Of a stretch of DNA of 64,000 bases, positions 9,010-61,832 are shown piece after piece. The position numbers and the translations under genes are program-made. The notes below the pieces were generated by a model. It worked only from the letters and a program-made list of their open reading frames with translations, was not told the origin of the DNA and did not search any database. The stretch's first letter is position 1. Every line of letters starts with the position of its first letter. The DNA comes from Promethearchaeia archaeon (lineage in GTDB: Archaea > Asgardarchaeota > Lokiarchaeia > Sigyniarchaeales > SOKP01), in contig JAHQWK010000030.1 of assembly GCA_029856145.1 (NCBI GenBank), positions 9,261-73,260 of the forward strand, read 5' to 3'.

Positions 9010-9043
9010 GAAATGGTAAATTCAGAGTCTGATTTCAATGAAA
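9010..9043 (+). repeat. Dispersed 33-bp hairpin repeat, copy 1
   Basis: GAAATGGTAAATTCAGAGTCTGATTTCAATGAAA (one extra T relative to the other copies). Weaker similarity to copy 2 extends to about 9066. Confidence 0.9.
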
Positions 9044-9121
9044 ACTCAATGAAAAATGATAAAGTGGTAGTCTAAAACTGTAGAAAAAGAAATATAAAAA
9101 AAAGTTTTAATACGAATTTAA

Positions 9122-11485
9122 TTATTGTTTTCTTTTCTTTTTTCTTCTAATTAACAATATGCTTGCTATACCTATCACTGCTCCTCCACCAATAATCGAA
9201 GCTAGAATAATTAATTCGATAGGAATAGCTCCATCTGCTGTTATTTCTCCAACAGTCATAGTAACTGTGTGGGTCGTAAAATGACTATAAATATCCGTAA
9301 AATTCACCGTATAGATATATTGACCTTTGGATAGACCATCTGGAACATTATACGAAATTGCCGTGCCATTTGACCACATACTCGGACCAACTACGATACC
9401 AGACCCCTGAAGCTCAATCGTGAAATTGCTTGGGTTTGGATCTACTGCCGTCCATGAAATATTTTGCCCTGTATAACCGAGTTCTACACTGAAGTCACTT
9501 GGTGAGCTTGTTAATATCGGGTTTACAACATGACTTCGAATTTGAATGATGGCCAAACCTGGATAAAAATCTGCTAAATAGGCATAATCTCCGCTCACCC
9601 AAATGTCTGTAGAGATTCCATCCGTATTTTCGTATATGGGCATTCCTGGATTGGTAGGGTCAGAAATGTCAATAACCGCTAAACCTGAGGTACCATCAGC
9701 TACATAGGCGTAATCTCCGCTCACGTGAACGTCCCGTGCTACACCAGCTGTATCCATATATATAGGTACCCCTGGATTAGTCGGGTCGGAAATGTCAATG
9801 ATCGCTAAGCCTGAAAGTCCATCTGCTATATAGGCATAATCTCCGCTTATGTAGACATCATTTGCAGAATGAGCCGTATTTCTATATATGGGTGTCCCAG
9901 GATTGGTAGGGTCAGAAATGTCAAGAATCGCCAAGCCTGAATTTTCAACTCCTACATAAGCATAATCCCCCTCCACGTAAACACTAAGTGCAAAACCAGC
10001 TAAGCCTACGCCTTTAGGCAGTCCTGGGTTGGTTGGATCAGAAACATCAATGATCTCCAAACCTGGGGTACCATCAGCTACATAGGCATAATCTCCGCTC
10101 ACATAAACATCATTTGCAATAAAACCCGTATCTTCATACACGGGTGTTCCCGGGTTGGTCGGGTCAGATATATTAATGATCGCTAAGCCCGACGTATCAA
10201 CCGCTACATAGGCGTAATCTCCGTCCACGTAAACCTTACGTGCAGCTCCGCTTGTACTCTCATGTATGGCTATTCCGGGATTGATTGGATCAGAAATATC
10301 AATGATAGCTAAGCCTCCAAGACGAGAAGCCATATAAGCATAATTACCGCTAACATAAACTCCATCTGCATGAGAATTAGTGTTTTCATATACAGGGGTT
10401 GTTGGATTTATCGGTTCGGAAATTTCAACGACTGCTAAACCCGCATTTTCCTCAGCCACATAGGCATAATCCCCGTCTACGTAAACTCCATGTGCAGAAT
10501 CCGCTGTGTTTTCGTATACATGCAGTCCTGGGTTGGTTGGATCAGAAATGTCAATAACCGCTAAGCCTGAAAGACTATCCGCTACATAGGCATAATCTCC
10601 ATATACGTAAACATCATATGCTGATCCGGTCGTATCTTCATAAACGGGCGTTCCCGGGTTGGTAGGATCGGAAATGTCAATAACCGCCAAGCCTGAAAGA
10701 CTATCCGCTACATAGGCATAATCTCCGGTCACATAAACGCCCACTGCACTTCCGATCGTGTCTTCGTAGATGGGTGTTCCTGGATTGGTTGGGTTGGATA
10801 TATCAATGACCGCTAAACCTTCATCTCCATCTGCTACATAGACAAAATCTCCACTCACGTAAACATCAAATGCAAGTCCGATCGTATCTTCGTAAAAAGG
10901 CGTTCCCGGGTCAGTCGGGTCGGATATATTGATAACCGCTAAGCCTGAGCCATAATCAGCCATATAGGCAAAATCTCCGCTCACGTAAACATTATATGAC
11001 GATCCGGTTGTATCTTCGTAAAATGGCGTTCCCGGGTCAGTCGGGTTGGATATATTGATAACCGCTAAGCCAGACCCATAATCTGCCACATAGGCATAAT
11101 CTCCATACACGTAAACATCATATGCTGATCCGGTCGTATCTTCGTAAAATGGCGTTCCCGGGTCGGTCGGGACTGAAATATTAATTACTGCTAAGCCCGA
11201 AGAACCATCTGCTACATAGACATAATCTCCACTCACGTAAACACTTTTTGCCTGTCCAGTTGTATCTTCGTGGAATACATTAGATATTTTAAGGATAGAT
11301 GTAGTAATATCTTCTATTATCTTTGCGTTACTTCTTCTATTACTTGCTAATAAATTTGGGATTATGACTAATGTTATAAAAATCGTGATTACAAACCAAA
11401 TATTTACTTTTTTCCTCTTATTTGTTTTATATTTGCAATTTTTCATTAATTCGCACCTTTTTCTAAAATTATGTAAATAGTCCAT
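9122..11485 (-). CDS. LVIVD-repeat beta-propeller cell-surface protein with N-terminal hydrophobic segment, Ig-like domain and C-terminal membrane anchor
   Basis: About 14 units of ~42 aa (LAVIDISDPTNPG..AYDVYVSGDYAYVAD). C-terminal hydrophobic helix followed by RRKKKRKQ. The start may be the second Met. Confidence 0.9.
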   Translation of the reverse strand: MDYLHNFRKRCELMKNCKYKTNKRKKVNIWFVITIFITLVIIPNLLASNRRSNAKIIEDITTSILKISNVFHEDTTGQAKSVYVSGDYVYVADGSSGLAVINISVPTDPGTPFYEDTTGSAYDVYVYGDYAYVADYGSGLAVINISNPTDPGTPFYEDTTGSSYNVYVSGDFAYMADYGSGLAVINISDPTDPGTPFYEDTIGLAFDVYVSGDFVYVADGDEGLAVIDISNPTNPGTPIYEDTIGSAVGVYVTGDYAYVADSLSGLAVIDISDPTNPGTPVYEDTTGSAYDVYVYGDYAYVADSLSGLAVIDISDPTNPGLHVYENTADSAHGVYVDGDYAYVAEENAGLAVVEISEPINPTTPVYENTNSHADGVYVSGNYAYMASRLGGLAIIDISDPINPGIAIHESTSGAARKVYVDGDYAYVAVDTSGLAIINISDPTNPGTPVYEDTGFIANDVYVSGDYAYVADGTPGLEIIDVSDPTNPGLPKGVGLAGFALSVYVEGDYAYVGVENSGLAILDISDPTNPGTPIYRNTAHSANDVYISGDYAYIADGLSGLAIIDISDPTNPGVPIYMDTAGVARDVHVSGDYAYVADGTSGLAVIDISDPTNPGMPIYENTDGISTDIWVSGDYAYLADFYPGLAIIQIRSHVVNPILTSSPSDFSVELGYTGQNISWTAVDPNPSNFTIELQGSGIVVGPSMWSNGTAISYNVPDGLSKGQYIYTVNFTDIYSHFTTHTVTMTVGEITADGAIPIELIILASIIGGGAVIGIASILLIRRKKKRKQ
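9545..11275 (-). repeat. Coding tandem repeat, about 126-bp unit, about 14 copies
   Basis: Recurrent + strand TAGGCATAATCTCC...ACGTAAAC; near-identical stretches at ~10587-10640 and ~11091-11143. Confidence 0.88.
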
Positions 11486-11605
11486 AAGCTTGATCGTTTA
11501 TATGTTTTTGTTAAATTTTAAATTATTTTACATTAAGTTTTATTCCTTTTTAGAATATGTAGGACAAATTCTTAACTATTAAGATTAGAATTTTGTAAAA
11601 TTCCT

Positions 11606-11638
11606 GAAAGGTAAATTCAGAGTCTGATTTTAATGAAA
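11606..11638 (+). repeat. Dispersed 33-bp hairpin repeat, copy 2
   Basis: GAAAGGTAAATTCAGAGTCTGATTTTAATGAAA. Confidence 0.9.
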
Positions 11639-11720
11639 ATTTAGTAGAAAAAGAAAAAGTGTAAGAAATAATCACAGAAGTATTGCTTTAATAAGATGGA
11701 AAAATAGTAAAAATAATATA

Positions 11721-12269
11721 TCACATTTGTTTTTTTGGAAATCCTATCCAACGTGATACTTGATTCATGTAATCTTTATATTCTTCTTCAAATTCTAATA
11801 TCAAGTATTTTTCTTCATAATGGGCAAAGTATGAATAAAGTGCGAATATTCCCATAGAATAAATAAATCCAATAACTGAAAATGTCGCGATATTAAGACT
11901 AAAATACAATAATATAGCGCTTAAATACATGGGATGACGGGAGTATCGAAATGGTCCATTTCTAATCACATGTGGAGGTGTTCGAATCTCACCATATATA
12001 ATTTTCAGACTTTTTTTTGCAATTCTAAGAGCAATGATGATAATTGGAACAGCAATTATTAGTCTGAAATACCATTTTAAGATATTTTGAATTGATGACA
12101 TCAATTGAATTAGATTTAAATCTATTAGTATTGCAATTATGAATCCAGTAAAACAGATTATTTGCTTTAAATCACATTTTGATGAGGTTTTTCCCAAATC
12201 AATACGATCTTGATATTTAACTTGATTCGCTTTTAATCCTTTACTGCTTGAATTTTTGTTTGTTATCAT
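11721..12269 (-). CDS. Isoprenylcysteine carboxyl methyltransferase / PEMT-family membrane protein
   Basis: Hydrophobic helices, GPFRYSRHPMY, EEKYL..EF..EYKDYM..V.RW. Confidence 0.85.
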   Translation of the reverse strand: MITNKNSSSKGLKANQVKYQDRIDLGKTSSKCDLKQIICFTGFIIAILIDLNLIQLMSSIQNILKWYFRLIIAVPIIIIALRIAKKSLKIIYGEIRTPPHVIRNGPFRYSRHPMYLSAILLYFSLNIATFSVIGFIYSMGIFALYSYFAHYEEKYLILEFEEEYKDYMNQVSRWIGFPKKQM

Positions 12270-12410
12270 TTTGTTTTAGGTATATTTTTTATATTTACTA
12301 TAATATTAATATTTAATACATTATTTATAAATCAAAAAGTGCGATTTGAATGAGTAAGTATAAGTTCTTATACTTACACTATTTTAATCCAAATTTCATG
12401 GGTGGTAAAA

Positions 12411-12866
12411 ATGGGATATTCTTTAGAAAAGAAAAAAGAGGAATTAAAAGAAATGATTGAATTAATTCCAAAAATGCAAGAATCTGTTCGAAATGGATTA
12501 AAAAAGCATTTCCAAGGATTAAATAAACAAAATAAGGGTTCTATTGAATTTGAATTACATTCATTACGAAAGGCGATAGAAATTCTTGATTCAAAATATG
12601 TTTTAGACATTATATTCGTTTTAAGTAGAGAGGGGGAAAGTTTTTTTTTTAATGAATTAAAATCCATGTTATCTCATGTTAATGTAGGAACATTATCAAA
12701 ACGGCTGAAAGAATTGGAAAAGGATAAAGTTATTGATCGAAAAGTGTATCCTAATGAACGTCCAATTCGTGTGAGTTACAGCTTAACTAAAATGGGGTAT
12801 GGCATGTTTTATTTACTTCTTCCAATGTTGGTTTATGTTACCTATATTGATGAATTTCTTAATTGA
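12411..12866 (+). CDS. HxlR-family winged-helix transcriptional regulator
   Basis: FNELKSML...TLSKRLKELE..VIDRKVY..RPIRVSYSLT..G. ATG 12411 follows GGTGG. Confidence 0.88.
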   Translation: MGYSLEKKKEELKEMIELIPKMQESVRNGLKKHFQGLNKQNKGSIEFELHSLRKAIEILDSKYVLDIIFVLSREGESFFFNELKSMLSHVNVGTLSKRLKELEKDKVIDRKVYPNERPIRVSYSLTKMGYGMFYLLLPMLVYVTYIDEFLN

Positions 12867-13423
12867 ACTAATCCTCCCTAAAATCGATATAATGGCTAAG
12901 TCATGTTGTATTTGGTAGTCTATCTCTAATTTGATTTAATATCTTAATAATAAACTCTTCTCCAGTAGCAACATCAATGCTTTCTCCATTTTCTGCATTA
13001 TTTTAATGATTCTTGATCGATTCTGCTAACTTTAATGAGAAATGTGTTGGAGATGGATCATAATATTATTTATTATTATCATCATCTAACATTATGTAGA
13101 CAATGGACAATTTTAAAATATTCTCCTACTCAAATCCATCATTTCCACAAGAAAAGTTCCCAATTTGGATCTCATTCTTTTAATTACTTAACAAAAACGA
13201 ACAAAACATTCAGAAAGTCTAAAGAAAGATGGGAATTATGACCGATTACGAAAAATCAAACACAAAAGATGTTTGGGACTGATCATTCACAAAGTGAAAA
13301 ATGTAGGATATTGATCATTTATTATAAAAATATTTATATAATTACATTTCTTTATTTTTTAATCAACGGAAAAAAAGATGCGGAAAACAACTCTTTATCA
13401 AAAAAATTAAAAAGTGTTAAATA

Positions 13424-16400
13424 ATGGAAGGATCAGTATTAGTTATTGGTGGGGGGATTGCAGGGATACAAACTTCTTTGGATTTAACTGAATTAGGCTT
13501 TAAAGTTTACTTAGTAGAAAAGACTCCTTCAATTGGAGGAAGAATGGCTCAACTTGATAAAACCTTTCCAACAAATGATTGCAGTTTATGTATTCTTGCC
13601 CCTAAAATGGTGGAAGTATTTAGAAATCCTAACATTGAATTAATGACTTATCATGAAGTTCAAAAAGTCTCTGGAAAGCCAGGAAATTTTGTGGCTACAG
13701 TCTTTAAGAAACCTCGTTATATTGATGAGACTAAATGTAAAGGATGTGGTGACTGTGCTACTAAATGTCCAAAAATTGAATTCCCTAACATATTTGATAT
13801 GAATCTAGGTAAAAGAAAATCTATTTACATTCCATTTCCTCAAGCAGTACCCCCTGTATATTTAATTGACCCTGAATTATGTTTAAAACTCACTAAAGGA
13901 GTATGCGGAGTTTGTGAAAAAGTTTGTAAGGCAGAAGCAATAGATTTTGAACAAAAACCTCAAGAAATTAAATTAAACGTTGGTGCTATCGTTGTTGCTA
14001 CTGGATATGATGTATTAGGAGAAGAGTTAACCTCAAGATGGGGTTATAATTATAAAAATGTAGTAAATGCTTTAGAATATGAAAGGATGCTGTCTGCGTC
14101 TGGTCCGTTTGGAGGTCACATTTTAAGACCAAGTGATGAGAAAGAGCCAGAAATAATAGGATTTATTCAATGTGCGGGGTCAAGGGATTTACGCGAGGGA
14201 ATTCCCTATTGCTCTTCAGTTTGTTGTATGTATATAGCTAAGGAAGCAATCATAACTAAGGAACACTCTGAACAATCCAAATGTTTTGTATTCAGGCATG
14301 ATGTTAGAGCTTATGGTAAAAACTTTTATGAATTTACCCAGAGAGCTCAGGAAGAATATGGAGTAAAATATTTCCAGACTAAAATTAGTAGAATAATAGA
14401 AGATCCAGAAACAAATGATTTAGTAATTCATTATGAAGATCTAAAAACGGGTGAATTTAAGGATTTTAAGGCAAATCTAGTGGTGTTAGCTACACCTCTT
14501 GTCCCTTCAGCTGGAACTAAGGAATTAGCGAAAGTTGTAGATATCGAGTTGGATGATTATAATTTTTTTAAAGAGAAATCATATTATAATAAATCTTTAT
14601 CCTCTAAAGAGGGCTTTTTTTTAGCTGGTTTTTGTCAAGGTCCAATGGATATACCAGAAACGGTAGCTGACGCTAGTGGGGTAGCTTCACAAGTAGCGAT
14701 TCTACTTAATTCCTTTAAATTTACTGAAACAAAAGAGAAAATTATTGAGATACCAGAAAAAATAGTTAAAGAAACAGATATAACCAGAATTGGAGTCATT
14801 ATCTGTCATTGTGGTATCAATATTGGAAAATACATTGATATTCCTCAAGTTATAGAACACATAAAAACATTGCCTAATGTAGTCTTTTGTGAAGATAATT
14901 TGTATTCTTGTAGTTCAGATTCTCAAGAACGAATTAAAGAAGTAATAGGTGAATATAATTTAAATAGATTTATTGTAGCTTCTTGTACGCCAAGAACACA
15001 CGAATCTCTATTCCAGGAGACATGCCAAGAAGCGGGATTAAATAAATACTTATTTGAAATGGTGAATATCCGTGATCAATGTTCATGGGTACATATGACA
15101 GAAAAAGAGCTTGCTACGGAAAAAGCAATTGATTTAATAAGAATGGGTGTTGCTAAATCAAGATTATTAAAATCACAAGAAGAAAAGAAATTGAAAATCA
15201 CTCAAACTGCAATGGTAATCGGTGGAGGAATATCCGGAATGACTGCTGCATTAAACATAGCTAATCAAGGATTTATTGTTTATCTTATAGAAAAAGAGAA
15301 ATATTTAGGTGGAAATTTAAGATACTTAAATATGCTATATCCTACTCAAGAGGATGCTTCAGTCTTACTAAACGAAACCATAGAAAAGGTTGAACAGAAT
15401 AAGAATATTCAAATCTTTTCAAATTCTGATTTAAAAGATATTAATGGATATCTTGGTAATTATAATGTTTCACTTATCGATTCAGATAATAAAATTCATG
15501 AGTTAAAAATTGGCACTATTATTGTTGCCACTGGAGGACAAGAATTAAAACCTAATGAATTTTTTGAATATAAATATACGAACCACAATGTAATTACACA
15601 ATTACAACTAGAACAGAAATTAAAGGATGAAGATAATTCATGGCTTGATAAACTTAATCACATTACTACTCTATTATGTGTTAATGCTAGACAAGAAAAA
15701 GGGATAACATATTGTTCAAATATATGTTGTGAAAGTGCTATAAAGAATATTAATATCTTAAAGGAATTAAAGCAAGACCTTAAACTAATTGTTCTTTATA
15801 GAGATCTTCAAATGGCAAAGAAAGAATTTGAAAGATATTATCGTGAACGAAGAAAAGATGCCATTTTTTTGAGATATGATTTAGATAATCCGCCTGTAAT
15901 TAAAGAGAAAAATAGTGGAACAAGTAAGTTTGAAATTAAAGTATTTGATACCAATTTACAAGATAATATCAAATTTGATACAGATTTATTAGTATTATCC
16001 ACACCTATGATTCCCGCTGACAATTTAGATGAGCTAGCAAAAATGCTCAAGGTTCCTCTAGACAAAAATGGTTTCTTTTTAGAGGCTCATGTTAAATTGA
16101 GACCGTTAGATTTTGCTACTGATGGAATATTCTTATGTGGATGTGCCCAATGGCCAAAAAATATACAAGATTCAATATCACAAGGAAATGGTGCCGCAGG
16201 AAGAGCATGTAGGTTTTTAAGCGCAGAGGAAATTACCACATCTGGATTAATAGCGGAAGTAGATCCAGAGATGTGTATCGGATGTGGAACATGTGAGGAA
16301 GCATGTTCCTATAGCGCAATAGAAATTATAAGTGTCATGAAGGAATTTGAAGAAGTAAGTCTACCAATAAAAAAATCTTCTGTAAATTCAAGTTTATGCA

Positions 16401-16504
16401 AAGGATGTGGTACTTGTGCGGTGAATTGTCCAGTTGGGGCAATTTCTATTAAGCATTACGATTTTGAACAAATAAATGCTATGATTAGGACATTAGCAAT
16501 GTAA
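13424..16504 (+). CDS. hdrA: Large two-module HdrA-like flavoprotein
   Basis: Same motif set as 5428..8469; close paralog of 17934..21035. Confidence 0.95.
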   Translation: MEGSVLVIGGGIAGIQTSLDLTELGFKVYLVEKTPSIGGRMAQLDKTFPTNDCSLCILAPKMVEVFRNPNIELMTYHEVQKVSGKPGNFVATVFKKPRYIDETKCKGCGDCATKCPKIEFPNIFDMNLGKRKSIYIPFPQAVPPVYLIDPELCLKLTKGVCGVCEKVCKAEAIDFEQKPQEIKLNVGAIVVATGYDVLGEELTSRWGYNYKNVVNALEYERMLSASGPFGGHILRPSDEKEPEIIGFIQCAGSRDLREGIPYCSSVCCMYIAKEAIITKEHSEQSKCFVFRHDVRAYGKNFYEFTQRAQEEYGVKYFQTKISRIIEDPETNDLVIHYEDLKTGEFKDFKANLVVLATPLVPSAGTKELAKVVDIELDDYNFFKEKSYYNKSLSSKEGFFLAGFCQGPMDIPETVADASGVASQVAILLNSFKFTETKEKIIEIPEKIVKETDITRIGVIICHCGINIGKYIDIPQVIEHIKTLPNVVFCEDNLYSCSSDSQERIKEVIGEYNLNRFIVASCTPRTHESLFQETCQEAGLNKYLFEMVNIRDQCSWVHMTEKELATEKAIDLIRMGVAKSRLLKSQEEKKLKITQTAMVIGGGISGMTAALNIANQGFIVYLIEKEKYLGGNLRYLNMLYPTQEDASVLLNETIEKVEQNKNIQIFSNSDLKDINGYLGNYNVSLIDSDNKIHELKIGTIIVATGGQELKPNEFFEYKYTNHNVITQLQLEQKLKDEDNSWLDKLNHITTLLCVNARQEKGITYCSNICCESAIKNINILKELKQDLKLIVLYRDLQMAKKEFERYYRERRKDAIFLRYDLDNPPVIKEKNSGTSKFEIKVFDTNLQDNIKFDTDLLVLSTPMIPADNLDELAKMLKVPLDKNGFFLEAHVKLRPLDFATDGIFLCGCAQWPKNIQDSISQGNGAAGRACRFLSAEEITTSGLIAEVDPEMCIGCGTCEEACSYSAIEIISVMKEFEEVSLPIKKSSVNSSLCKGCGTCAVNCPVGAISIKHYDFEQINAMIRTLAM

Positions 16505-16644
16505 GGTTAAATTAAAAAGAATTTAACGCTATCATATCTATAATTTCTCATTTGACAATAGAGTTATTAATTCTAATCAGAAAAAATAAATTCTTTCTAT
16601 TTTTTTTCTAATCATTATCAATTCAATTTTTAAAATTTGAATAA

Positions 16645-17934
16645 TTGAATGAAGTGAATATTATTACTGAGACTAAAAAAACAGATGATTCAGAAGAACT
16701 CAGCGATGACATCAATTCTTACATTGAAAAAGTTTATGAACCAAATATAAGGAAATTATTGTATAGATGTTATCAATGTGTTCGCTGTAGTGGTGTCTGT
16801 CAACTCAGCAAGGTTCAGACTTTTGAACCTAGTAGAATAATTCAAATGATATTAGAGGGTTTTGAAGATAAAATTATTGAGAGTGGCATTTTATGGGATT
16901 GTTTAACTTGTAATGCTTGTCTTCAAAATTGTCCTGAAGGAATTAATTTTGCAGATATTGTTAGAATGACAAAATATAAAATGCGAGAATCGTATAATCA
17001 AAACCCGGATGATTTTATTGCTCATAAAGGTGTATATACCACTATCTCAGAGATAATGAGTGAATCTCATATAATTCCAGAAAGATCCCTTGAATGGGTT
17101 CCTAAGGGATGTGAAATTTCAAAACAAGGAAAGATTATGTTTTATGTTGGGTGTTTACCCTATTTTAATTTTGAGTTTGAAAATTCAGATTCTATAGCAG
17201 AAAGCACTTTAAGCATACTTTGCCAGATTGAAAAAGAGCCAATTGTAGTTCTTCAAGATGAAATTTGTTGTGGACATGACCTTTATTGGGGTCAAGGAAA
17301 ACTCAAAGAATTTATCAATTTGGGGAAGAGGAATATTAAAAGAATTGAAGAAACTGGAGTTAAGACAATAATTACGGCATGTGCTGAATGTTATAGGACA
17401 TTTAAAGTAGATTATCCGAATTTATTTGAAAATTTTAATAAAAAATTCGTTATCAAACATTTAATTGAGTATGTCTATGAAAATTGGAAAGCAAATAAAA
17501 TTGAATTTAAGAACCCATCTGAAAAAGAACAACCAATTCCATTTACTTATCATGACCCATGTCGTCTAAGTAGATTTTTACCGAAAGATAGTAAGATAAT
17601 AGATAATGTACGTGAAATTTTTTCTCATTTAAAGCAAATAGGATATGAATTTTCTGAAATGCTACATAATAAAACTGATGCTTTGTGCTGTGGAGTAAGT
17701 TCCTGGATGAATTGCAATGATCGCTCAAAAGCCTTACGCTATAAAAGGTTATTAGAAGCAAAAGATGCAGGGGAAATAATGGTCACTTCATGTCCTAAGT
17801 GTAAAATACATTTGTCTTGTCTACAAGAAGACTATGAAGATATCGCATCAATAGAAATAGTAGATTTTTCTGAATTCTTAGTTAATCTAATAACTATTGT
17901 AGATTCTAATCAAAAGGTGGAGGGAGAAAAATAA
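16645..17934 (+). CDS. HdrD-like Fe-S oxidoreductase (paralog of 4151..5428)
   Basis: CYQCVRCSGVC, CLTCNACLQNCP, two CCG domains, YHDPCRL. Confidence 0.9.
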   Translation: MNEVNIITETKKTDDSEELSDDINSYIEKVYEPNIRKLLYRCYQCVRCSGVCQLSKVQTFEPSRIIQMILEGFEDKIIESGILWDCLTCNACLQNCPEGINFADIVRMTKYKMRESYNQNPDDFIAHKGVYTTISEIMSESHIIPERSLEWVPKGCEISKQGKIMFYVGCLPYFNFEFENSDSIAESTLSILCQIEKEPIVVLQDEICCGHDLYWGQGKLKEFINLGKRNIKRIEETGVKTIITACAECYRTFKVDYPNLFENFNKKFVIKHLIEYVYENWKANKIEFKNPSEKEQPIPFTYHDPCRLSRFLPKDSKIIDNVREIFSHLKQIGYEFSEMLHNKTDALCCGVSSWMNCNDRSKALRYKRLLEAKDAGEIMVTSCPKCKIHLSCLQEDYEDIASIEIVDFSEFLVNLITIVDSNQKVEGEK

Positions 17935-21035: not shown

Positions 21036-21051
21036 TTCTTAGGTGATAATC

Positions 21052-50981: not shown

Positions 50982-51428
50982 TTAATCATCCTCAAAATGC
51001 TTTACAACTGTAAACCAAAAGTTTATTATTGAATTAATAATTCTGTAAAATTCCTTCATTTCTAAAGGTTTAATTATATAACAATTAGCATGAAGATTAT
51101 AAGCTTTTATTAAATCTTCTCTTACATCAGATACTGTTAAGATTACCACAGGAATCCTTTTTAATTCTTCATCATGTTTCATTTCTTTCAATACATCAAA
51201 ACCATTCCTCTTTGGCAAATTTAAATCTAAAAGGATTAGGTTTGGTTTACTAGCATTAGAAAATTTACCTCTCTTCTTTAAGAAATCAATCGCTTCAGCA
51301 CCGTCCCTTACAATATCTAAACTACCTACAATTTTATTCTCTTGAAGAACTTTCTTGGTAAGACGAATATCTGCAGCATTATCTTCAACGAGTAAGATTT
51401 TAGCCTTAGTTCTTTTATATTCATTCAT
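50982..51428 (-). CDS. Stand-alone response regulator (Rcp1-like)
   Basis: ILLVEDN, LILLDLNLPK, IPVVILT, AY.LHANCYIIKP. Confidence 0.93.
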   Translation of the reverse strand: MNEYKRTKAKILLVEDNAADIRLTKKVLQENKIVGSLDIVRDGAEAIDFLKKRGKFSNASKPNLILLDLNLPKRNGFDVLKEMKHDEELKRIPVVILTVSDVREDLIKAYNLHANCYIIKPLEMKEFYRIINSIINFWFTVVKHFEDD

Positions 51429-51447
51429 AATTATATACCATTATTCT

Positions 51448-52509: not shown

Positions 52510-52860
52510 TTCTCATCTTTTATTACATATTCTTTAATATGTGATTTTTTTAAAACGAATTGGTAAAAAATCATAGGAAAAAATCATAATTAATAAGAAT
52601 ATTATCCAATATAAAATAAATTTTATCGAACAAAAATATCACTAATTATAGTCTAGAAAATGAGCTTTCAGTTTAAAAATTAGAAAAACAATAATAGTAT
52701 TCTTTATACATTTAAAAATTTTATAACTAAAATGATTCATTTGAATTATAGATAAAATAATTATTTATATTAAACTGAATATTATTCAGTATAAGGAAAA
52801 TAGAGATGGAAAAAATTTTAATTTTTAAAATGTCCTAAAAACATTTTCGGGTGAACAAAT

Positions 52861-53760: not shown

Positions 53761-55103
53761 GGGAAAATTCCTCTCAATTCAATTGCTTTAGCTAATCTTG
53801 ATATAGCAATCATATATGAGGCTATTCTTAGACTAGCATTCTTTTCTTTTGATAGATTATAAACATCCTCGAATGCACTAACAAGAATATTTTTTAATTC
53901 CTGATTAATTCTTTCTAATTTCCAAAAATAGCTATGAATATCTTGAATGTATTCAAAATACGAGACACATACGCCTCCAGCATTAGCAAGAATATCAGGG
54001 ACTACAATTATCCCTTTTTTCTCTAGAATATTATCTGCTCCTGGAGTAGTTGGACCATTAGCACCTTCTAATATAATTTTACAATTTATTCTATTTGCAT
54101 TTGATCGGGTTATTTGGTTTTCTATTGCAGCAGGAATTAAGATATCACATTTTAAAGTAAGTATATCTTCATTACTGACGAATTTATAGCCTTTACCTTG
54201 AAAATCTTTTAAATAATTACTTTCATCTCTCCATTTTAATAATTGGTCGATATTTAATCCGCCTTTGGCATATAAACCTCCACTAATGTCTGACACAGCT
54301 ATAATTTTACATCCTTTCTCATATAAAATTTTTGCAATATTTCCTCCAACATTGCCAAATCCTTGAATAACAATATCCTGGGGGTTTAGATCTAAATTAA
54401 TTTTATTGCATAAAGCTTCGAGTACAAAAAATAATCCCATTCCAGTTGCAGATTCTCTCCCAACTGAACCTCCTATTTCTATTGGTTTCCCCGTAACGAC
54501 CCCAGGAACAGCCCTCCCTTTATGCATCGAATAAGTATCCATAATCCACGCCATGATCTGAGGATTTGTATTTACATCAGGAGCTGGAATATCCTTATCG
54601 GGGCCTATAAAATTTATGATTTCTGAAGTGTATCTCCTAGTTAGCCTTTCTAATTCCTCTTTTGATAATTTTCTGGGGTCAACACATACACCACCTTTTG
54701 CTCCTCCAAGAGGTAAATTTAATAAGCTACATTTCCAAGTCATCCAAATAGCCAACGCTTTAACTTCATCAAGGTTAACATTTGGAGCAAATCTAATACC
54801 TCCTTTACCAGGACCTCGAACTGTTGAATGTTGCACTCTGTAACCCTCAAATATCTTGAGTGTTCCATCATTCATCTTAATTGGAATAGAAACAATTAAA
54901 GAACGTTCAACTCTTTTGAGAAATTTCTTAATATTATTATTCAATCCCATCTTTTCGGCAACAATGTCAATTTGTTTTTTTGCCATTTCAAATGGATTTG
55001 TTTCCATTAATAATTCTTCCTTGACCGTAACAGAAACGTCAGCAGCAACTAAAGCTTCGGGATAAATTATTTTCATTTGTTCCTTTTTCTTATTTTCTAA
55101 CAT
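53757..55103 (-). CDS. gdhA: Glutamate dehydrogenase (Glu/Leu/Phe/Val family)
   Basis: GPGKGGIRF, GGAKGG, DIPAPD, VVTGKP, QGFGNVG, GANGPTT, PDILANAGGV. Confidence 0.95.
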   Translation of the reverse strand: MLENKKKEQMKIIYPEALVAADVSVTVKEELLMETNPFEMAKKQIDIVAEKMGLNNNIKKFLKRVERSLIVSIPIKMNDGTLKIFEGYRVQHSTVRGPGKGGIRFAPNVNLDEVKALAIWMTWKCSLLNLPLGGAKGGVCVDPRKLSKEELERLTRRYTSEIINFIGPDKDIPAPDVNTNPQIMAWIMDTYSMHKGRAVPGVVTGKPIEIGGSVGRESATGMGLFFVLEALCNKINLDLNPQDIVIQGFGNVGGNIAKILYEKGCKIIAVSDISGGLYAKGGLNIDQLLKWRDESNYLKDFQGKGYKFVSNEDILTLKCDILIPAAIENQITRSNANRINCKIILEGANGPTTPGADNILEKKGIIVVPDILANAGGVCVSYFEYIQDIHSYFWKLERINQELKNILVSAFEDVYNLSKEKNASLRIASYMIAISRLAKAIELRGIFP

Positions 55104-55106
55104 TTT

Positions 55107-55270
55107 CGAATAGAATTCAATTTCATTCTTTTCAATTTAATTGATTAGATAATATCTCTTCATTTTATATATGTCATTTAATGCTTATAAATGTGTCGAA
55201 CAATATCCTTTCATCAGTTTATTAAAGCGAAGAGAGTTCGAGCATCCCTATATCAAACGAATCTAATTCA
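55107..55270. promoter_or_regulatory. Three YGAA-N5-TTCR sites in the gdh upstream region
   Basis: CGAATAGAATTCA 55107-55119, CGAAGAGAGTTCG 55228-55240, CGAATCTAATTCA 55258-55270. Confidence 0.62.
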
Positions 55271-55349
55271 ATTAAGCATATTAATCTTTATCATGATATT
55301 TTAGCATACCCAACTAATAAAAAAGATAAAATTCTTAGAAGATAAGGGA

Positions 55350-55577
55350 TTAAAAGATCTTAAAGATTTTACAAAATAGACTTATAATTTCAGATAAAGC
55401 TTTTTGAAAATATCTTCGAGCTAATGTAATATTTTCTCGAGAAGGAGAATAAATAACACCTCCTGGAACAAGTGAAATCAAATGAACAGATCTTCCGCCA
55501 AATAATTCATTTATTTCATTTCCAACTTTAATTAAATCATATAAATTAGATGTTAATTGAGGATTATTATTCCTCAT
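55350..55577 (-). pseudogene. Internal fragment of a group 3 [NiFe]-hydrogenase large subunit
   Basis: GNEINELFGGRSVHLISLVPGGV matches the conserved GGR.IHP....PGG segment. Only 75 aa, with no CxxC Ni-binding motifs. Confidence 0.65.
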
Positions 55578-55609
55578 GAGTTTTTAAATTTCAACTTTAA
55601 AAAAAAAAA

Positions 55610-57289
55610 TTAATAAGAAATTTTTATTTCCCTTCCAAATAGTATTTTTCTAGCTTTCTCAAATGCTTCATTATAATCAAAAATTTTTTTTCCTTTAGTA
55701 GTCGCTGCTTCTTTTAGAATTGAAGCCTCAACTTCTGATTTAAGAGTACCAACTGCTAATGCTCCTGTTCCAAATATAGCTGGAAAAATTTCCTTATTAT
55801 TATCTTTAGGCTTTAAACCCTCAATTCCATAAGGAGGTACTAAATTAATATCAATTACAATTTTGTTTTTTAATTTAATCATGAGTTCTTTTGATAATAC
55901 TTGAACTCCTACTGCGGCTAAGGACCATATTATCTCAGCGTTTTCTATAATCTCGAATTTTTGATCGTCATTAACAGCATATATACCCTTTATTAAGGTA
56001 GCATCTTCTCCAGCTTCAGTAGATAATTCTTCTGCTAAATTCTGAATAAAATTCTTACTTGATTTATTCCATGTTTCAACAATAAAAGTTTTACATTTTA
56101 ATTTTGCTGACAAAATGGCAGCAATTCTCGCAACTGGTCCTGCTCCTAAAATTACAACTTTCTTTCCTTTTAAATCTCCGATGTTATGCATCCTAGCAAA
56201 CTCCATCGTTTTTGCTACTATGCAGGGAGCGGTTGTGTGTGAACCTCTCGGGTCAATAATTATAGGGCATTCAAATGGGGGGACTAATGAATTTATTACT
56301 TCTTTAGCAATTTTATATCCTTCTTTTACATTAGACCCCCCAACAAAAAATGAGGTAGGAGCACTAGGTTTGCGAGAAAAAATAGCATCTTGTACTAATT
56401 TTGGTACTTGATCAGCAGAAATTTTACTAATTGGAATTACAATATCAAATCCTGCGTCATAAGCCATATTAATATCAAAAGGGGAAGCATTTTCATCAGT
56501 ATCGAAAAAATAACAAATTTTCTCTAGTTCTTCTTTTTTTTTAATTTTAATTGGGGTTAAATTAATTGTTTTATTAAGAATACTTTTTATCGTAGAATTT
56601 TCAATATTAGTAGCAATTTGAGAAATCCTTTTAATTTTGATTTCTTCGATTTCTACTCCTAATTCTTCAGCGTATTGTTTTATTCCATCAAAATGTTGTA
56701 CGTCACATATAAAAAAAGCTGTTAAATTTTTACTTTTTGTCTCTCGTGCTTTATTCATAATTTTCATCATCATCCACGCTTCTCTAACTTTAAATCTTAC
56801 TTCATTTTCTTGTTCTTCATATTCTTGTTGTAGGTATTGTTTCCATAATAAAACTCTTTGAAATTCAAAATTATTTTTAAGAAATTCTTCTCTTAAATTT
56901 GAGTTGGTATTAATTACATTCTTTAGTTGCTTAATAAGTGATCTATGTTCATCTAAATTAGCATTAAGATAACCTTCTGCATTTTCAGAAATATCGATTA
57001 TTTGATATGGAATATTATATGTTCTAAATAATACTGAGATTGGGTCATCTTGTGATATAACCTCTTCCCATCTACTTCCTTTTTCTTCGACTGCAAAATT
57101 AGGTTGATATTTTTCAATAATACTCTCAATTAATTCAAGATACTCTTTTGAGATTAAATGTAAATTCCAAGCTAAATCATGCTTTTTTTCAGCTGGACCT
57201 TCAAACCACCAATCAATTGGAAATTCACTTTCAATTAATATTATTTTTAATTTGCTCCTCTCTAGTGGTATTAATTCTAAAACTTCCAT
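55610..57289 (-). CDS. NAD(P)-dependent methylene-H4MPT dehydrogenase (MtdB/MtdC-like) fused to an unknown ~250-aa N-terminal domain
   Basis: SPFDINMAYDAGFD, VQDAIFSR, VPPF, DPRGSHTTA, GAGPVA, DINLVPPYGIEG, GALAVG.LK. Confidence 0.85.
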   Translation of the reverse strand: MEVLELIPLERSKLKIILIESEFPIDWWFEGPAEKKHDLAWNLHLISKEYLELIESIIEKYQPNFAVEEKGSRWEEVISQDDPISVLFRTYNIPYQIIDISENAEGYLNANLDEHRSLIKQLKNVINTNSNLREEFLKNNFEFQRVLLWKQYLQQEYEEQENEVRFKVREAWMMMKIMNKARETKSKNLTAFFICDVQHFDGIKQYAEELGVEIEEIKIKRISQIATNIENSTIKSILNKTINLTPIKIKKKEELEKICYFFDTDENASPFDINMAYDAGFDIVIPISKISADQVPKLVQDAIFSRKPSAPTSFFVGGSNVKEGYKIAKEVINSLVPPFECPIIIDPRGSHTTAPCIVAKTMEFARMHNIGDLKGKKVVILGAGPVARIAAILSAKLKCKTFIVETWNKSSKNFIQNLAEELSTEAGEDATLIKGIYAVNDDQKFEIIENAEIIWSLAAVGVQVLSKELMIKLKNKIVIDINLVPPYGIEGLKPKDNNKEIFPAIFGTGALAVGTLKSEVEASILKEAATTKGKKIFDYNEAFEKARKILFGREIKISY

Positions 57290-57584
57290 TTTCTCTCAAA
57301 CACCTCTCATATTTTTTTATAATGTTTAAATTTAAACTTCCTTTGTAGATTTTCCTATATCATATTATGTTTCTATTGCATAAAAACTTATGTATTCGAA
57401 AGTATTAATACAATAAAACGATCATCAAATGATCACTAATCTACAATTTTTAAGTTAAACTTTTTCTTTTGAAATATAAAAGTGAGATTTATTAGATTTA
57501 GAGACACATAATCTATAGCGCTAATTTATTGAAAAATCAATGTATCTTTACAAAATAAATTTTTAAAAAAAGAGGTGATAAGTC

Positions 57585-57950
57585 ATAACCCAAAATGAAA
57601 AACATATTTTATATGTACAAACTTCCCATGATCCAGAACGCCAATATTCACCATTAGTTCTAGCTCAAACAGCTAAAGCAATGGATATCAAAGCAACAGT
57701 CTACTATTTAGGTACCGCATTAAAAATTTTAAAACCAGGAGAAGCTGATAAAATTAAATTAGGTAGTTTTCCAAGTGTGAAAGAAATGATTGATAAAACT
57801 ATGAATATGGGTATTGAAATCTTAGTTTGTGAAGCTTCAAAAAGAATGTTAGGTTTGGAAAAAGTGGATTTAATTCCCGGTGTTAAGATTGTCGGTGCTG
57901 CTACTTTAAATGATTTAGTTTTAGAGGCAGATGCGACTCAATGGTTTTAA
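57585..57950 (+). CDS. DsrE-family protein; probable AUA start
   Basis: The frame extends to ATA 57585: (I)TQNEKHILYVQTSHDPERQYSPLVLAQTAKAMD...VCEAS...IVGAATL. SD GAGGTGA lies 6 nt upstream, with an in-frame TAA at 57579. Confidence 0.82.
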   Translation: MTQNEKHILYVQTSHDPERQYSPLVLAQTAKAMDIKATVYYLGTALKILKPGEADKIKLGSFPSVKEMIDKTMNMGIEILVCEASKRMLGLEKVDLIPGVKIVGAATLNDLVLEADATQWF

Positions 57951-57999
57951 GATAAAACAAATAAAAAATAAGTAAAAAAAACTAAGTAGTTATTAATTC

Positions 58000-59133
58000 T
58001 TATTGTATGAGTTCTAGAAATGTTTTATTCCCAATCATATTTTTCTCTGGTGGGACATTATCTCGCACTTTAATCATTTTTATTGCATCATTTGGACAAT
58101 TTGCTGCGCAAATACCACATCCAATGCAAAGTTCTTCTCTTAATACCATTCTTTCAATAGGATCAATTTCAATTGGAAATTTATGATAAATTGCTTCATT
58201 GGGGCATTTTCTCATACAAGTTTCACATTTATTACAGAGTTCAATATTAAATTTAGGTGAAAAATTAGAGGGAAGTGCACCTTTCTCATGAAATATTTTT
58301 GCTGGAAATAAAGATCCACAGTGGCAACTACAACAATTACAGATAAAAACAGAAGATTCATAACCTTTATCAAAAATAGCATTATGTACTAAGCCTCTTT
58401 TTTCAGTCTCTTTAATGAATTCAATAGCTTCTTCTTTATTTAACAATCTTGCACCACGAATGCCATCAGACACCATCATAACACCAGCAGATCCTACAAT
58501 AAAGCACCCCATTTCAGAAGGTGCAACTTCACATGGTTCTCCTGATAGTTCTCCAATCAAACGGCATTGACAAGATATTACAGCAAACTGGTCATTTTTG
58601 TCTATAAGGGTTTTTACTGATTCATAAGGCAATATTTGTGATTGAATATCAAAATCTTTATTGATTTCAATCAATTTTTCTTCAGCTTCTAATGGAAGCA
58701 TTGGTCGAAAAAGATTCCATTCTGTATCATTTAGCTGATTTCGTTGAGGCATAATCTCCTTCATAATATCCCTATATAGCTTAGCTGCTTTACTTATGTT
58801 CTCCTCTGTATCCTTACTTTTCATAAAGTATTTTTCAAAAATCCCCGGAATGATAGGATCAAGACAGTATTTTAATCCTTTTTTCGATATTGTTCCATTC
58901 TCTACTGACCTTTTTAATAGGTTTTTAATCTTATCTTTTGGTAATCCCGATCTTTCCATTAGTTGTTTTATTGAATTCCACTTATCAGCACTGTCAAAAT
59001 GAAAAAGTAATTTAATTTCCTCTTCATTCCAAAAAATTTTCAGTAATTTAATTATTTTCCGATGTTTTGGTGCTGTTAATGGGCCTAATACTAGTTTCTG
59101 TCTTACAATATCATAATAATCTGGTTCAGCCAT
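58000..59133 (-). CDS. 4Fe-4S protein with N-terminal HTH-like region and CxCR/CNCC motifs
   Basis: SCQCR, GLVH, ICNCCSCHC, two ferredoxin motifs. Confidence 0.88.
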   Translation of the reverse strand: MAEPDYYDIVRQKLVLGPLTAPKHRKIIKLLKIFWNEEEIKLLFHFDSADKWNSIKQLMERSGLPKDKIKNLLKRSVENGTISKKGLKYCLDPIIPGIFEKYFMKSKDTEENISKAAKLYRDIMKEIMPQRNQLNDTEWNLFRPMLPLEAEEKLIEINKDFDIQSQILPYESVKTLIDKNDQFAVISCQCRLIGELSGEPCEVAPSEMGCFIVGSAGVMMVSDGIRGARLLNKEEAIEFIKETEKRGLVHNAIFDKGYESSVFICNCCSCHCGSLFPAKIFHEKGALPSNFSPKFNIELCNKCETCMRKCPNEAIYHKFPIEIDPIERMVLREELCIGCGICAANCPNDAIKMIKVRDNVPPEKNMIGNKTFLELIQ

Positions 59134-59418
59134 AGTCTTTATTATAACATTATTTTATAAATACTTAAGTGTGAATTTTTTTCAAAATCGTAAAAAAATT
59201 ATTATACAAAATAACAATTAACGTAGCTCTAATTAATCAGAATATTGTCTAAGTGTAATTTATTAAAATTAAAAATTCTCTCTGTTATCTAAGACATATT
59301 AAAAAACATGATCTTATTCGGATTTGGTATGAGGAGATATATCATAAATAAACATAAACCTAAATTTAATGCTTAATTCATATCAATTAATAGAGAATAT
59401 ACTTGAAAATTCTATTTA

Positions 59419-60843
59419 ATGTTTGTTGAATATTTCTATTATTTAAAAGAACGCTTACCAGTTAGCATTACAGAATACATGACTTTAATGGAAGCTCTCA
59501 ATAAAGGGCTTATCCACAACATGGTTGAGTTTTATTACACCTCACGCTCAATTCTATGTAAGAATGAGCACCATTTCGACATTTATGACATCGCATTCGC
59601 AAACTTTTTCAAAGAGGCAATGTTAAAATTCCCAGAAGATATTAAACAAGAGATCTGGGATTGGCTCAATAAAGATATTACTCTCCCGGAACTTATAGAG
59701 GGCCTACAACTAATTCTACGTGAATACCAACAATATATTAATATTGAAAATTTAGAACAATTTCTCGAAGAACTTTTGGAAAAATATAAGGGGAAATTTG
59801 GTAATAACTTATTAATTAATGCTCCAAATGAAATAAAGGATGAAATCTGGAAATGGCTGGAAAAAAACTTTGACCTCTCGGAAATGCAGGGTTCATTCCA
59901 AGAGATGATGAGTCAATTCTTTGATCTCGAAGAAATGCAAAAAAGATTCGAAGAATTAATGCAAAAACAAGACGAGGAACATAATGGAGGGAACCGTTGG
60001 ATTGGTACTCAAGGACAATCCCCTTTTGGTCATGGAGGTCAAAATCCTATGGGTATGAGAGTCGGGGGCTCCTCTGGAGCGCGAACGGCAGTTCAAATCG
60101 CGCAAAAACGCATCTTTAAAGATTACCGAAAAGATATCGTGCTCGATACAAGACAAATTAAAGTTGCTTTAAAACGTCTTAAAAAACTTGAAGAAATAGG
60201 GAAAAAAGATGAATTAGACTTGGATAAGACGATTGATAAGACTGCTAAGAACTGTGGAGATATTGAAATTGTATTTGATAAAAAAAGGAAGAACAATGTT
60301 AGAATGGTTCTCTTAATGGATGTTGGGGGTAGTATGACCCCTTATGCTCATTTGGTCAATCTTCTTTTCTCAGCAGCTAATAATATGTCACACTGGCGCT
60401 CATTTGATTTTTTCTATTTTCACAATTGTTTATATGAGCAGGTCTATTTCAATGCTCGAAGGAATCCAGATGAAGCAATTGAATTTAACGAGTTCTTAAA
60501 AAAATTTGATAACAAGTATAAAGTAGTACTTGTTGGAGATGCCGCAATGGCGAGTTGGGAACTAACCGAAAAGTATGGCTCGATTTATTATTATCATCGA
60601 AATGAATTTCCCGGAATATTCTTTATTAAAGAACTAGCTAATCATTTTAAAAATAACGTAGTTTGGTTAAATCCCGAACTTATAAGACCTGAATGGGCGC
60701 CGTGGACTCGAAAGATTATTTCAAGCATCATCCCAATGTTTGATTTGACTGTCGAGGGAATTGAAGACGCAATGGATTATCTTCGAAAAGGAGGTAAAAA
60801 TATGTACACAACTGTTCAAATGCTTAAGGGCTTAAATTATTAA
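59419..60843 (+). CDS. VWA-domain (CoxE-like) partner of a MoxR AAA+ ATPase
   Basis: HNGGNRWIGT.G.SPFG.GG, LLMDVGGSM, FYFHNC.YE, VGDAAM, VWLNP. Confidence 0.9.
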   Translation: MFVEYFYYLKERLPVSITEYMTLMEALNKGLIHNMVEFYYTSRSILCKNEHHFDIYDIAFANFFKEAMLKFPEDIKQEIWDWLNKDITLPELIEGLQLILREYQQYINIENLEQFLEELLEKYKGKFGNNLLINAPNEIKDEIWKWLEKNFDLSEMQGSFQEMMSQFFDLEEMQKRFEELMQKQDEEHNGGNRWIGTQGQSPFGHGGQNPMGMRVGGSSGARTAVQIAQKRIFKDYRKDIVLDTRQIKVALKRLKKLEEIGKKDELDLDKTIDKTAKNCGDIEIVFDKKRKNNVRMVLLMDVGGSMTPYAHLVNLLFSAANNMSHWRSFDFFYFHNCLYEQVYFNARRNPDEAIEFNEFLKKFDNKYKVVLVGDAAMASWELTEKYGSIYYYHRNEFPGIFFIKELANHFKNNVVWLNPELIRPEWAPWTRKIISSIIPMFDLTVEGIEDAMDYLRKGGKNMYTTVQMLKGLNY

Positions 60844-61140
60844 AAACTTTAATTTTATAATAAAGAGGATTAGGAAGGTCTAAATCTGAAAAGAAATTAA
60901 ACATCGTAAATCGGTAGTTAATAAGGTTTATTTGCTTAATCTTTCATTTGAATACTAGATAGTTCAAAATGCACTATTTAAAATCGTAATATTTCAACCA
61001 ATTTCGAATCTTACTCATATGATCCCTTTGATTGAAGAATTTACCTAATTTTTCTTTAAATACTATCAAATTATTTTTGTCTATTATTGGTTAATTGATT
61101 AAATTTTAGTATAAAAAAATTAATTCCAGAGTTTTTGAAG

Positions 61141-61173
61141 GAAAGGTAAATTCAGAGTCTGATTTCAATGAAA
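61141..61173 (+). repeat. Dispersed 33-bp hairpin repeat, copy 3
   Basis: GAAAGGTAAATTCAGAGTCTGATTTCAATGAAA. Confidence 0.9.
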
Positions 61174-61319
61174 TTTCCATTAAAAAAGATAATCAAAAAC
61201 AATAAACTCAATAAAACTGGCTCGAAAAAGCTTTTGATTAGATTCTAGGATTTCTTCTTTTTTAAATTCTTTATGATACTTTCATCATTGTAAGCTTCAA
61301 GCATGATTCGAAAGATAGA

Positions 61320-61808
61320 ACATAATACTTAACTTTTTAATAATAAATTTCCTATATTTAAACATGTTAAAAACAACTAATTTTAGAAATGCAATTTTAT
61401 TCTCTCTATTACTAACTATTTCCATACATCTTGGAACCTTTATCCCCATAGTAAGTCTCTTTTTCTTACTTCGATTTTCCAAAGCCAATCCCGACAATAA
61501 TTATTTGGTCTCAAAAAGTCTTAGCGTAATGAATGATTTTGCTATTCCCTCTTTCGGATTCTAATAATTATTAATCTTATAGAGAGGAAGGGAAAACTAA
61601 AAAAGCGGAAGTTTTACAAGAATTTGATAATTTTTTAATTTTTTTTAGTGAATTAGATAAACTTATCAATTACTTTTTGATACCTCCCCGAAAAAAATTA
61701 ATAAAAAGAATTAGTTATAATTACCTTACTATTGTTTTGGGAATCTATATTCTATTTCTAATCCTACTACAGGTTATTTATTCTATTAAAATTGGGATGG
61801 AAAGGTAA
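61320..61808 (+). pseudogene. Decayed membrane-protein gene between repeat copies 3 and 4
   Basis: Hydrophobic ORF 61364-61564, then a second open frame 61575-61808 (SYREEGK...YLTIVLGIYILFLILLQVIYSIKIGMER*) that ends on the TAA inside repeat copy 4. Confidence 0.45.
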
Positions 61809-61832
61809 ATTCAGCGTCTGATTTCAATGAAA
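61800..61832 (+). repeat. Dispersed 33-bp hairpin repeat, copy 4
   Basis: GAAAGGTAAATTCAGCGTCTGATTTCAATGAAA. Confidence 0.9.

Follow-up and report, generated by a model that had tools for sequence, protein, structure and literature searches.

The stretch of DNA analysed here (the window) comprises 64,000 nt from the genome of a Promethearchaeia archaeon of the Asgard group (assembly GCA_029856145.1, contig JAHQWK010000030.1), and its subject is a 47-nt repeat element (REP) that probably serves as a recombination site between gene cassettes. In our labels the source genome is G000 (3.55 Mb, 30% GC, 32 contigs) and the window its C30:9261-73260, while other G numbers denote Asgard genomes and L numbers denote loci or contigs. 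Four REPs lie on the plus strand of the window in two pairs, the first of which stands between the conserved mvhD/FlpD gene (8488-8919, plus strand) and a conserved hdrA-like gene (13424-16504, plus strand), whose upstream region of ∼450 nt is also present in relatives where the site is empty. REP copy 1 (9010-9056, with the originally noticed 33-mer at 9011-9043) is the anchor copy nearest mvhD, followed by a first cassette (9057-11604, minus strand) with one gene for an LVIVD beta-propeller protein of 787 amino acids (9122-11485), by REP copy 2 (11605-11651), which has a minor 3′ variant (...GAAAATTTAGTAGAAAAA), and by a terminal stretch of cargo with no closing REP (11652-12970, minus strand). 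This last stretch contains a gene for a PEMT/ICMT-like membrane methyltransferase (11721-12269) and an open reading frame (ORF) for 97 amino acids (12374-12667). The second pair consists of copy 3 (61140-61186), an exact 33-mer, and copy 4 (61799-61845), with a C at the polymorphic loop position +11; the 612-nt segment between them (61187-61798) has no ORF of at least 90 amino acids and no similarity to the cargo proteins compared, and may be an ‘empty’ or decayed cassette.

As a preliminary description of this DNA had stated, the first pair brackets a single gene of raised GC content, and copies 1 and 2 lie shortly beyond the 3′ ends of minus-strand genes (79 and 83 nt past their stop codons). 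The LVIVD gene, at 41.8% GC, ranks highest among the 33 window ORFs of at least 200 amino acids (median 31.9%). Its DNA relatives elsewhere in the genus reach only 64-75% identity, and for the window cargo beyond it (the methyltransferase gene and the 97-amino-acid ORF) 53 congeners yielded no DNA match. The 3′ end of the LVIVD gene differs from the rest: its final ∼35 codons and the adjoining flank (9115-9225) match genes in several other genomes at 80-85%, as if surface proteins shared a C-terminal module for anchoring or sorting.

Matches to the 33-mer begin at 9011, 11606, 61141 and 61800, all on the plus strand, with 2, 1, 0 and 1 mismatches; none is expected in shuffled versions of the window (100 shuffles). 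The four same-strand copies thus stand as reported, except that copy 1 departs by two changes from a consensus to which all copies had been placed within one. The 33-mer is the core of a longer element: when 125 distinct copies, taken from about 25 genomes, are stacked without gaps, conservation extends from position −5 to +41 (GGAAAGGTAAATTCAGMGTCTGATTTCAATGAAAATTCCTTTGAAAA), where position 0, from which all REP positions are counted, is the G of GGTAAATT. The 5′ edge is sharp and almost all positions from −3 to +28 are invariant; within the resulting 32-nt core (AAAGGTAAATTCAGMGTCTGATTTCAATGAAA) only position +11 varies (A or C), in the loop of a small dyad. The weaker similarity noticed on the 3′ side is real and falls into two discrete variants between +30 and +42, a major one (ATTCCTTTGAAAAA) and a minor one (ATTTAGTGAAAAA), to which window copy 2 belongs; these may be markers of two cassette lineages. 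The reported lack of any similarity on the 5′ side is true of G000, whereas about one quarter of the REPs in other genomes are of a long form with a ∼50-nt 5′ extension (GGTTCGAGCCTTTTTAAATTTTGT-CCCAATTTCCTTTGAAATTGG-AATG) that no copy in G000 has. Both dyads of the originally proposed hairpin are present, and a 7-bp stem that leaves one T unpaired is possible, but the single-stranded fold is no more stable than that of shuffled controls (z-scores −1.6 to +0.8). The dyad pairs show no covariation because the sequence does not vary, and no Rfam family reaches its gathering score in the window.

REP is the most prominent dispersed exact repeat in G000, a genome otherwise poor in repeats. Eleven copies were counted there: the four in the window, four in a minus-strand array at the end of C26, one at the start of C17, and one each in C9 and C15. 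When searching with the 29-nt REP centre (at most three mismatches), we found 1-36 copies in each of 23 of 24 congeners and none in 16 genomes from other families of the same order. A sequence model built from 74 copies recovered REP in 103 of the 126 genomes sampled from the family of G000, across nine genera and with scores as high as those in the home genus; in six other families of the class it gave two marginal hits only. Exact matches in a collection of species representatives are, wherever named, Asgard metagenome-assembled genomes (MAGs) under the labels Promethearchaeota and Promethearchaeia (some submitters chose Hod-, Hermod-, Odin- or Borrarchaeota), and they include the complete chromosome CP070831.1. 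The exact REP is absent from the 2.9 million viral contigs of IMG/VR.

The arrangement of the copies is strongly polar. Among REP neighbours at most 10 kb apart, 178 pairs are co-oriented and 3 opposed, with a spacing of 277-8269 bp (median 1184 bp). The segments between them (n = 173) contain a single ORF of at least 90 amino acids in 72% of cases and none in 6%, the remainder having two to five. Relative to REP, these ORFs point in either direction (of 169 non-redundant ORFs, 87 in the same and 82 in the opposite direction); REP is therefore no gene-tied terminator, 3′ untranslated region element or operator, and a transcription factor operator at fixed promoter positions, considered at the outset, is not what we see. 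Cargo is diverse, with 160 Pfam families across 139 proteins, the commonest being TPR proteins, NosD/beta-helix surface proteins, alpha/beta hydrolases and GNAT acetyltransferases; few of the proteins match defence-system models. Clustering the genes at array ends by protein (24 loci) yielded cargo families only, and the genes inside three inverted REP pairs encode membrane proteins, a hydrolase and a transferase, with no DNA enzymes among them. One inverted pair, at L171:1299-4583, holds four genes for multi-pass membrane proteins without Pfam match, two of them paralogous at 58% identity. A stop codon donated by REP itself (ATG GAA AGG TAA) was found for 1 of 62 upstream same-strand ORFs and appears incidental.

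These figures bear on the idea that REP is a selfish miniature element, comparable to a miniature inverted-repeat transposable element or to the repetitive extragenic palindromic sequences mobilized by RAYT enzymes, or else a regulatory or RNA signal (terminator, operator or small RNA), accumulating in variable regions. REP does share with the bacterial repetitive extragenic palindromes and their mosaic elements (REP/BIME), and with the ends of IS200/IS605 elements, the character of a short, imperfect extragenic palindrome in which one base is unpaired; the long form contains a TATA box, and gene 3′ ends are nearer to REP than gene 5′ ends. Yet the Asgard REP is found only in variable regions, at low copy number (1-36 per genome) and in a uniform orientation instead of the alternating one of REP/BIME, independent of gene orientation, and synteny breaks exactly at the element. 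It has no Rfam match and no fold stability, no conserved promoter precedes the short form in the 125-copy stack, and the Y1 HUH transposase (PF01797) expected of such elements, typically between inverted repeats of this kind, was found in 0 of 5 genomes, with control genomes scoring, so that the HUH-type mechanism among those first listed lacks its enzyme. None of 335 ‘REP-deleted’ junctions matched contiguous DNA as a REP-only insertion would, although this is weak evidence as most of the DNA compared was itself REP-bearing. We consider such an origin extremely improbable.

That the units between REPs move is evident from the mvhD-hdrA interval, which we compared in 17 congeners. In G014, G017 and G003 it measures 517-567 bp and is free of REP; in G000, G006, G024, G041, G002, G010 and G004 it holds 1.1-4.9 kb of unrelated cargo with 1-3 REPs, and in G011, G007, G013 and G016 still more cargo. 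G023 has cargo and no REP. The genes bracketed in the window are thus not syntenic in relatives, where the interval is empty or differently filled, as the preliminary description had expected of a capture system. Set against the empty region of G014, G017 and G018, the whole insert of ∼4.0 kb (8947-12970) replaces ∼26 nt. An 87-nt leader before REP copy 1 is common to G016, G024, G002, G004 and G046; G000, G016, G024 and G002 have both this leader and the first REP after mvhD in common, with different genes behind. In G004 and G046 (L056, L054) the leader, ∼100 nt after mvhD, runs into a truncated REP whose last letters are GGTAAAT (+6); the DNA beyond is unrelated, which may be the trace of an exchange or a deletion within the core. 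The empty site of G014 contains nine nucleotides that match the REP 5′ end in inverted orientation (CCCTTTCCAT), but G017 and G018 lack them and we attribute them to chance. At a second locus, on C9, conservation is limited to the flanking gene for a 402-amino-acid protein, and G007 carries a REP in the corresponding place.

Whole inter-REP segments also reappear in other genomes, at 80-95% identity but with non-homologous DNA on either side (L040:13821-14693 and L097:442-1314; L129 and L142; L030 and L154; L026 and L169), and these alignments stop within a few bases of both REPs. Within G000, the last 121 nt of C26 equal window positions 61726-61846 at 98% (75 nt plus REP copy 4), with divergence starting just past the REP core, so that REP links one upstream segment to each of two cassettes, be it within a single genome or across the population sampled. 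Logan contigs break at every REP, where summed depth is 10-20 times higher. A seeming ‘skip’ joint from 9044 to 11586 in these contigs rests on 29 letters, probably from another REP context, and was discarded.

To locate the joint between cassettes, we compared 44 REP pairs that share their downstream flank only and 18 that share their far upstream flank only; as these pairs are not independent, the figures are descriptive and carry no tests. Agreement at positions +29 to +49 goes with the downstream flank (0.73-1.0; background 0.3-0.8), and that at positions −60 to −4 with the upstream flank. Since linkage to one flank reaches up to −4 and linkage to the other begins at +29, the cassette joint lies inside the invariant core. 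Breakpoints placeable only somewhere within an identical core, together with homology blocks abutting the left or the right REP and a candidate recombinase (see below) missing from most genomes, would also fit a scheme with no dedicated enzyme, in which REPs are portable 47-bp identity patches used by homologous recombination after DNA uptake or cell contact. Handles of this kind need no set sequence, however, and the bases of the core are constant across nine genera; nor does homologous recombination explain new, unrelated genes between REPs, the strict polarity at several separate loci, or a recombinase operon that repeatedly ends in REP. We regard this scheme as quite unlikely.

No tyrosine recombinase (PF00589) is encoded in the window, in agreement with the first reading of it, or anywhere in the G000 assembly; in the absence of a recombinase copy, the arrays of this genome are integrase-less. 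In other genomes a tyrosine recombinase gene does adjoin REP. Its product of 302 amino acids matches PF00589 with 81.7 bits (cut-off 27.1) and is predicted to be active, as R151, K175, H242, R245, H268 and Y278 are invariant in an alignment with XerA and supply the R, K, HxxR, H and Y of the family. The gene is the second of a two-gene operon, overlapped by 4 nt by the preceding gene for a partner protein of 172-207 amino acids, whose N-terminus weakly resembles the ribbon-helix-helix proteins NikA and MbpA. At about ten loci a REP or REP variant directly adjoins this operon, which stands on its 5′ side and reads away from it (coordinates include L220:2380-3833, L218:69-1522 and 12514-13967, L252:∼950-2406 and L260:722-2226). 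All four operon copies of G041, a genome with a REP variant (GGTCAATTCA...), adjoin a REP or variant in the same divergent geometry; that of G048:C168 adjoins a canonical REP (62 bits), and three unrelated metagenome contigs have the operon beside a REP or variant (L260, with 61 bits, L259 and L264). Both copies in G120 have a very diverged REP-like sequence in the same place. Three similar copies in G041 form a common module of ∼1.8 kb that starts inside REP and ends ∼265 nt past the recombinase stop codon, at ...GGTACTCTGTGAATT, which resembles the REP centre.

The long form of REP ties the element to this operon, being, on the opposite strand, the operon's upstream region. It combines a palindrome with a TATA-like box (TTTAAAAA or TTTATAAA) that comes after it, ∼45 nt ahead of the start codon; the palindrome CCCAATTTCCTTTGAAATTGGG is a candidate binding site for the recombinase and its partner. 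In arrays, the long form is commoner where the gene 5′ of REP points away from it (17 of 59) than elsewhere (4 of 62). Judging by its sequence, we infer that the long form may act as an outward promoter with an operator-like palindrome. Whether the 302-amino-acid recombinase is the enzyme of REP we put at slightly less than an even chance.

The host dimer resolvase XerA offers another candidate, as it alone among tyrosine recombinases is present in nearly all genomes of the family, and it would act on REP as Xer enzymes act on the pdif modules of Acinetobacter or on integrative mobile elements exploiting Xer (IMEX, e.g. the CTX phage), whose modules are likewise bounded by short sites with no recombinase inside. 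XerA occurs once in every genome that is well assembled (NF040815, 245 bits; cut-off 220), never near arrays. It is equally present in families without REP (140 of 151 genomes), so its distribution is uninformative and no specific association with REP emerges; and with the entire xerA neighbourhood missing from the G000 assembly, no loss of XerA from that genome can be concluded. Sites of the Xer/dif type, which are related to the host's own dif, are 28 bp long, with a 6-bp spacer separating 11-bp arms in inverted orientation (Cortez et al. 2010, PMC2958812). REP lacks a clear 11-6-11 layout, and REPs stand as direct repeats where pdif sites of that layout are inverted. Many dispersed Xer-active sites per chromosome should moreover be harmful. 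Three dif-like candidates in G000 resembling parts of REP proved not to be conserved dif sites: C28:42637 (TTCACCAATTT-ATCATA-AATTTGGTCAA) occurs in 4 of 54 genomes, C9:525215 (CAATGAAAATC-TCCAAA-GATTTTCATTA) in 1 and C21:14151 in 10. The last is a single-copy 29-bp imperfect palindrome (C21:14151-14179, L212; CCCAAATAATTTCAATGAAAATTTCTGGG) centred, like REP, on ATTTCAATGAAAAT; its centre is variable among the 10 of 54 congeners that have it, too poor a conservation for dif. Taken together, action of XerA on REP seems very unlikely to us.

Other recombination and transposition machinery was nearly absent. IS110 enzymes were found in none of five genomes and serine recombinases in the same number only as one broken copy, with control genomes scoring in both searches, and G000 has no multicopy insertion sequence, so REP does not appear to be the end of a known insertion sequence, another possibility raised early on. 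Multicopy segments of G000 that might have passed for insertion sequences are paralogous solute-binding protein genes and an ORF-less, probably ribosomal RNA (rRNA) segment. Arrays of clustered regularly interspaced short palindromic repeats (CRISPR) have a regular spacing of 55-100 bp; no CRISPR-like array was detected in G000, and the distances between REPs (277-8269 bp) do not fit such an array, which speaks against a CRISPR origin.

Considering all of this, REP is probably the cassette-junction recombination site of an integron-like, site-specific gene-cassette system; among the mechanisms listed in the preliminary description, the integron-like one fits best. Strand exchange would take place inside the invariant 32-nt core, presumably as a conservative site-specific reaction, so that the semi-conserved bases 5′ of the core would belong to the upstream cassette and the 3′ bases (ATTCCTTTGAAAAA or ATTTAGTGAAAAA) to the downstream one. 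A circular one-site cassette would insert into a resident site to leave two direct copies, and repeated rounds would lead, at a few chromosomal hot spots such as the one just after mvhD, to co-oriented arrays whose units mostly hold a single gene. The likely enzyme would be the 302-amino-acid tyrosine recombinase with its ribbon-helix-helix-like partner, both expressed from the long-form promoter, with the partner binding the palindrome and the recombinase acting in trans in genomes that lack its gene.

Several observations weigh against this reading. Regarding the site, the REP core contains no textbook inverted arm pair around a 6-8 bp spacer and, as noted, no clear 11-6-11 layout, and position +11 is linked to neither flank, leaving the crossover placed no more finely than the 32-nt core. 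The first insertion after mvhD is not a clean site-for-site event, as both the empty site and the right end of the insert are REP-free. Two cassettes are inverted relative to their REPs, of which a strict one-site cassette model predicts none, and neither an excised circle nor ongoing rearrangement was seen in the assembled contigs examined for it, which break at every REP. Regarding the enzyme, the recombinase family is patchy (22 of 135 genomes, 7 of 13 genera), about twelve of its loci have no REP nearby, and the independent support amounts to perhaps five lineages because the positive loci are partly one copied module. Finally, a gene for a D5_N/DUF5906 primase-helicase of 510 amino acids lies beside the recombinase gene in L259 (L259:6646-8178), which suggests that some recombinase copies ride an integrative plasmid or virus.

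This neighbour opens an alternative in which REP is the att site of small integrative plasmids or viruses that encode the 302-amino-acid integrase, its partner and sometimes the D5-type primase-helicase, the arrays being stacked, decayed tandem integrations. The integrase adjoins the site as attP lies beside int in many elements, and its module is multicopy (often with broken copies), patchy and up to 80-84% identical between genera. The recombinase has 183 metagenomic relatives, of which all named ones are Asgard, and most sit on short contigs, as is typical of mobile DNA. Neither the site nor the integrase has a match in the 2.9 million viral contigs of IMG/VR, however; most units between REPs consist of one ordinary gene of ∼1.2 kb, replication and structural genes are missing from them, and an integrase remnant is absent from most arrays. 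We therefore judge the plasmid or virus alternative unlikely.

Integrons are the textbook gene-capture device of bacteria, and the archaeal integrons reported so far are, to our knowledge, canonical attC/IntI systems. In function, the REP system is closest to sedentary chromosomal integrons, such as those with the Vibrio cholerae repeats (VCR), and to clusters of attC sites lacking integron-integrases (CALINs). In both, near-identical sites in one orientation alternate with accessory genes that are mostly single and poor in promoters, and cassettes are shuffled from genome to genome at these sites, which resemble one another more within a lineage; most REP arrays have no recombinase gene, as in CALINs, and the tyrosine recombinase gene, where present, adjoins the site and reads away from it. 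The differences are equally clear. Whereas attC is a structure-defined hairpin of variable sequence, recognized as a folded single strand with extrahelical bases, REP is a 47-nt element with an invariant core, and its fold is not significant. Its consensus contains neither GTT nor AAC, and R″/R′ boxes (RYYYAAC and GTTRRRY, 40-130 nt apart) occurred in 0 of 269 REP regions (−100 to +150; shuffled mean 4.1), which bears out the initial view that it is no attC. Cargo faces either way in a ratio of ∼50:50, several arrays occur per chromosome, and the recombinase is not IntI, the integron integrase with its specific insert (TIGR02249 gives 102 bits for XerA and 49 bits for the 302-amino-acid recombinase, against a cut-off of 265), is encoded with a small, putatively DNA-binding partner and is itself multicopy. 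As neither attC nor IntI is found, we do not file the REP system as an integron.

CALINs, sought with attC models, are reported to be enriched in Asgard archaea (Ghaly et al. 2022, PMC9668308). In the supplementary text of that study, possibly incomplete in the form consulted, neither the REP motif or centre nor the accession prefixes of the REP-bearing MAGs appear. A published description of REP, or a link of the 302-amino-acid recombinase to it, was not found in an incomplete search of the literature.

The REP system thus follows the logic of integrons but uses another site and probably another recombinase; it is present in most of the members sampled from one Asgard family, whose genomes are otherwise nearly free of transposases and insertion sequences. 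The fullest version of this proposal is that a Lokiarchaeia family has an integron analogue of its own, with a 47-bp site, a dedicated Xer-like recombinase, a ribbon-helix-helix partner and a promoter built into the site, capturing and reshuffling single genes of either orientation at several chromosomal hot spots and forming the main route of gene gain in transposon-poor genomes. We offer it tentatively, as a possibility that stands somewhat below an even chance. If true, it would explain how accessory genes for surface proteins, hydrolases and acetyltransferases are gained and exchanged, would imply that integron-like platforms arose more than once, and would describe the main gene-gain route in close relatives of the eukaryotic ancestor. 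A simple sequence-defined system of a 47-bp site, an enzyme of 302 amino acids and a small partner could perhaps also become a genetic tool for archaea that lack one. In annotation practice, REP copies help to recognize the flexible genome of these MAGs and the points at which their assemblies break.

Two further features of G000 were observed along the way. A segment of 3-4.3 kb with no ORF of at least 120 amino acids is present in triplicate (C8:34506-38773, C28:3649-7935 and C9:646481-649473; L208) at 89-94% identity and is probably the rRNA operon; this divergence would be unusual within one genome, or it may reflect a strain mixture in the MAG. In the window itself, positions 95-21035 contain four paralogous hdrA-like genes (∼1013-1033 amino acids) together with mvhD genes within 21 kb, and the variable intervals of this stretch fall between its conserved units.

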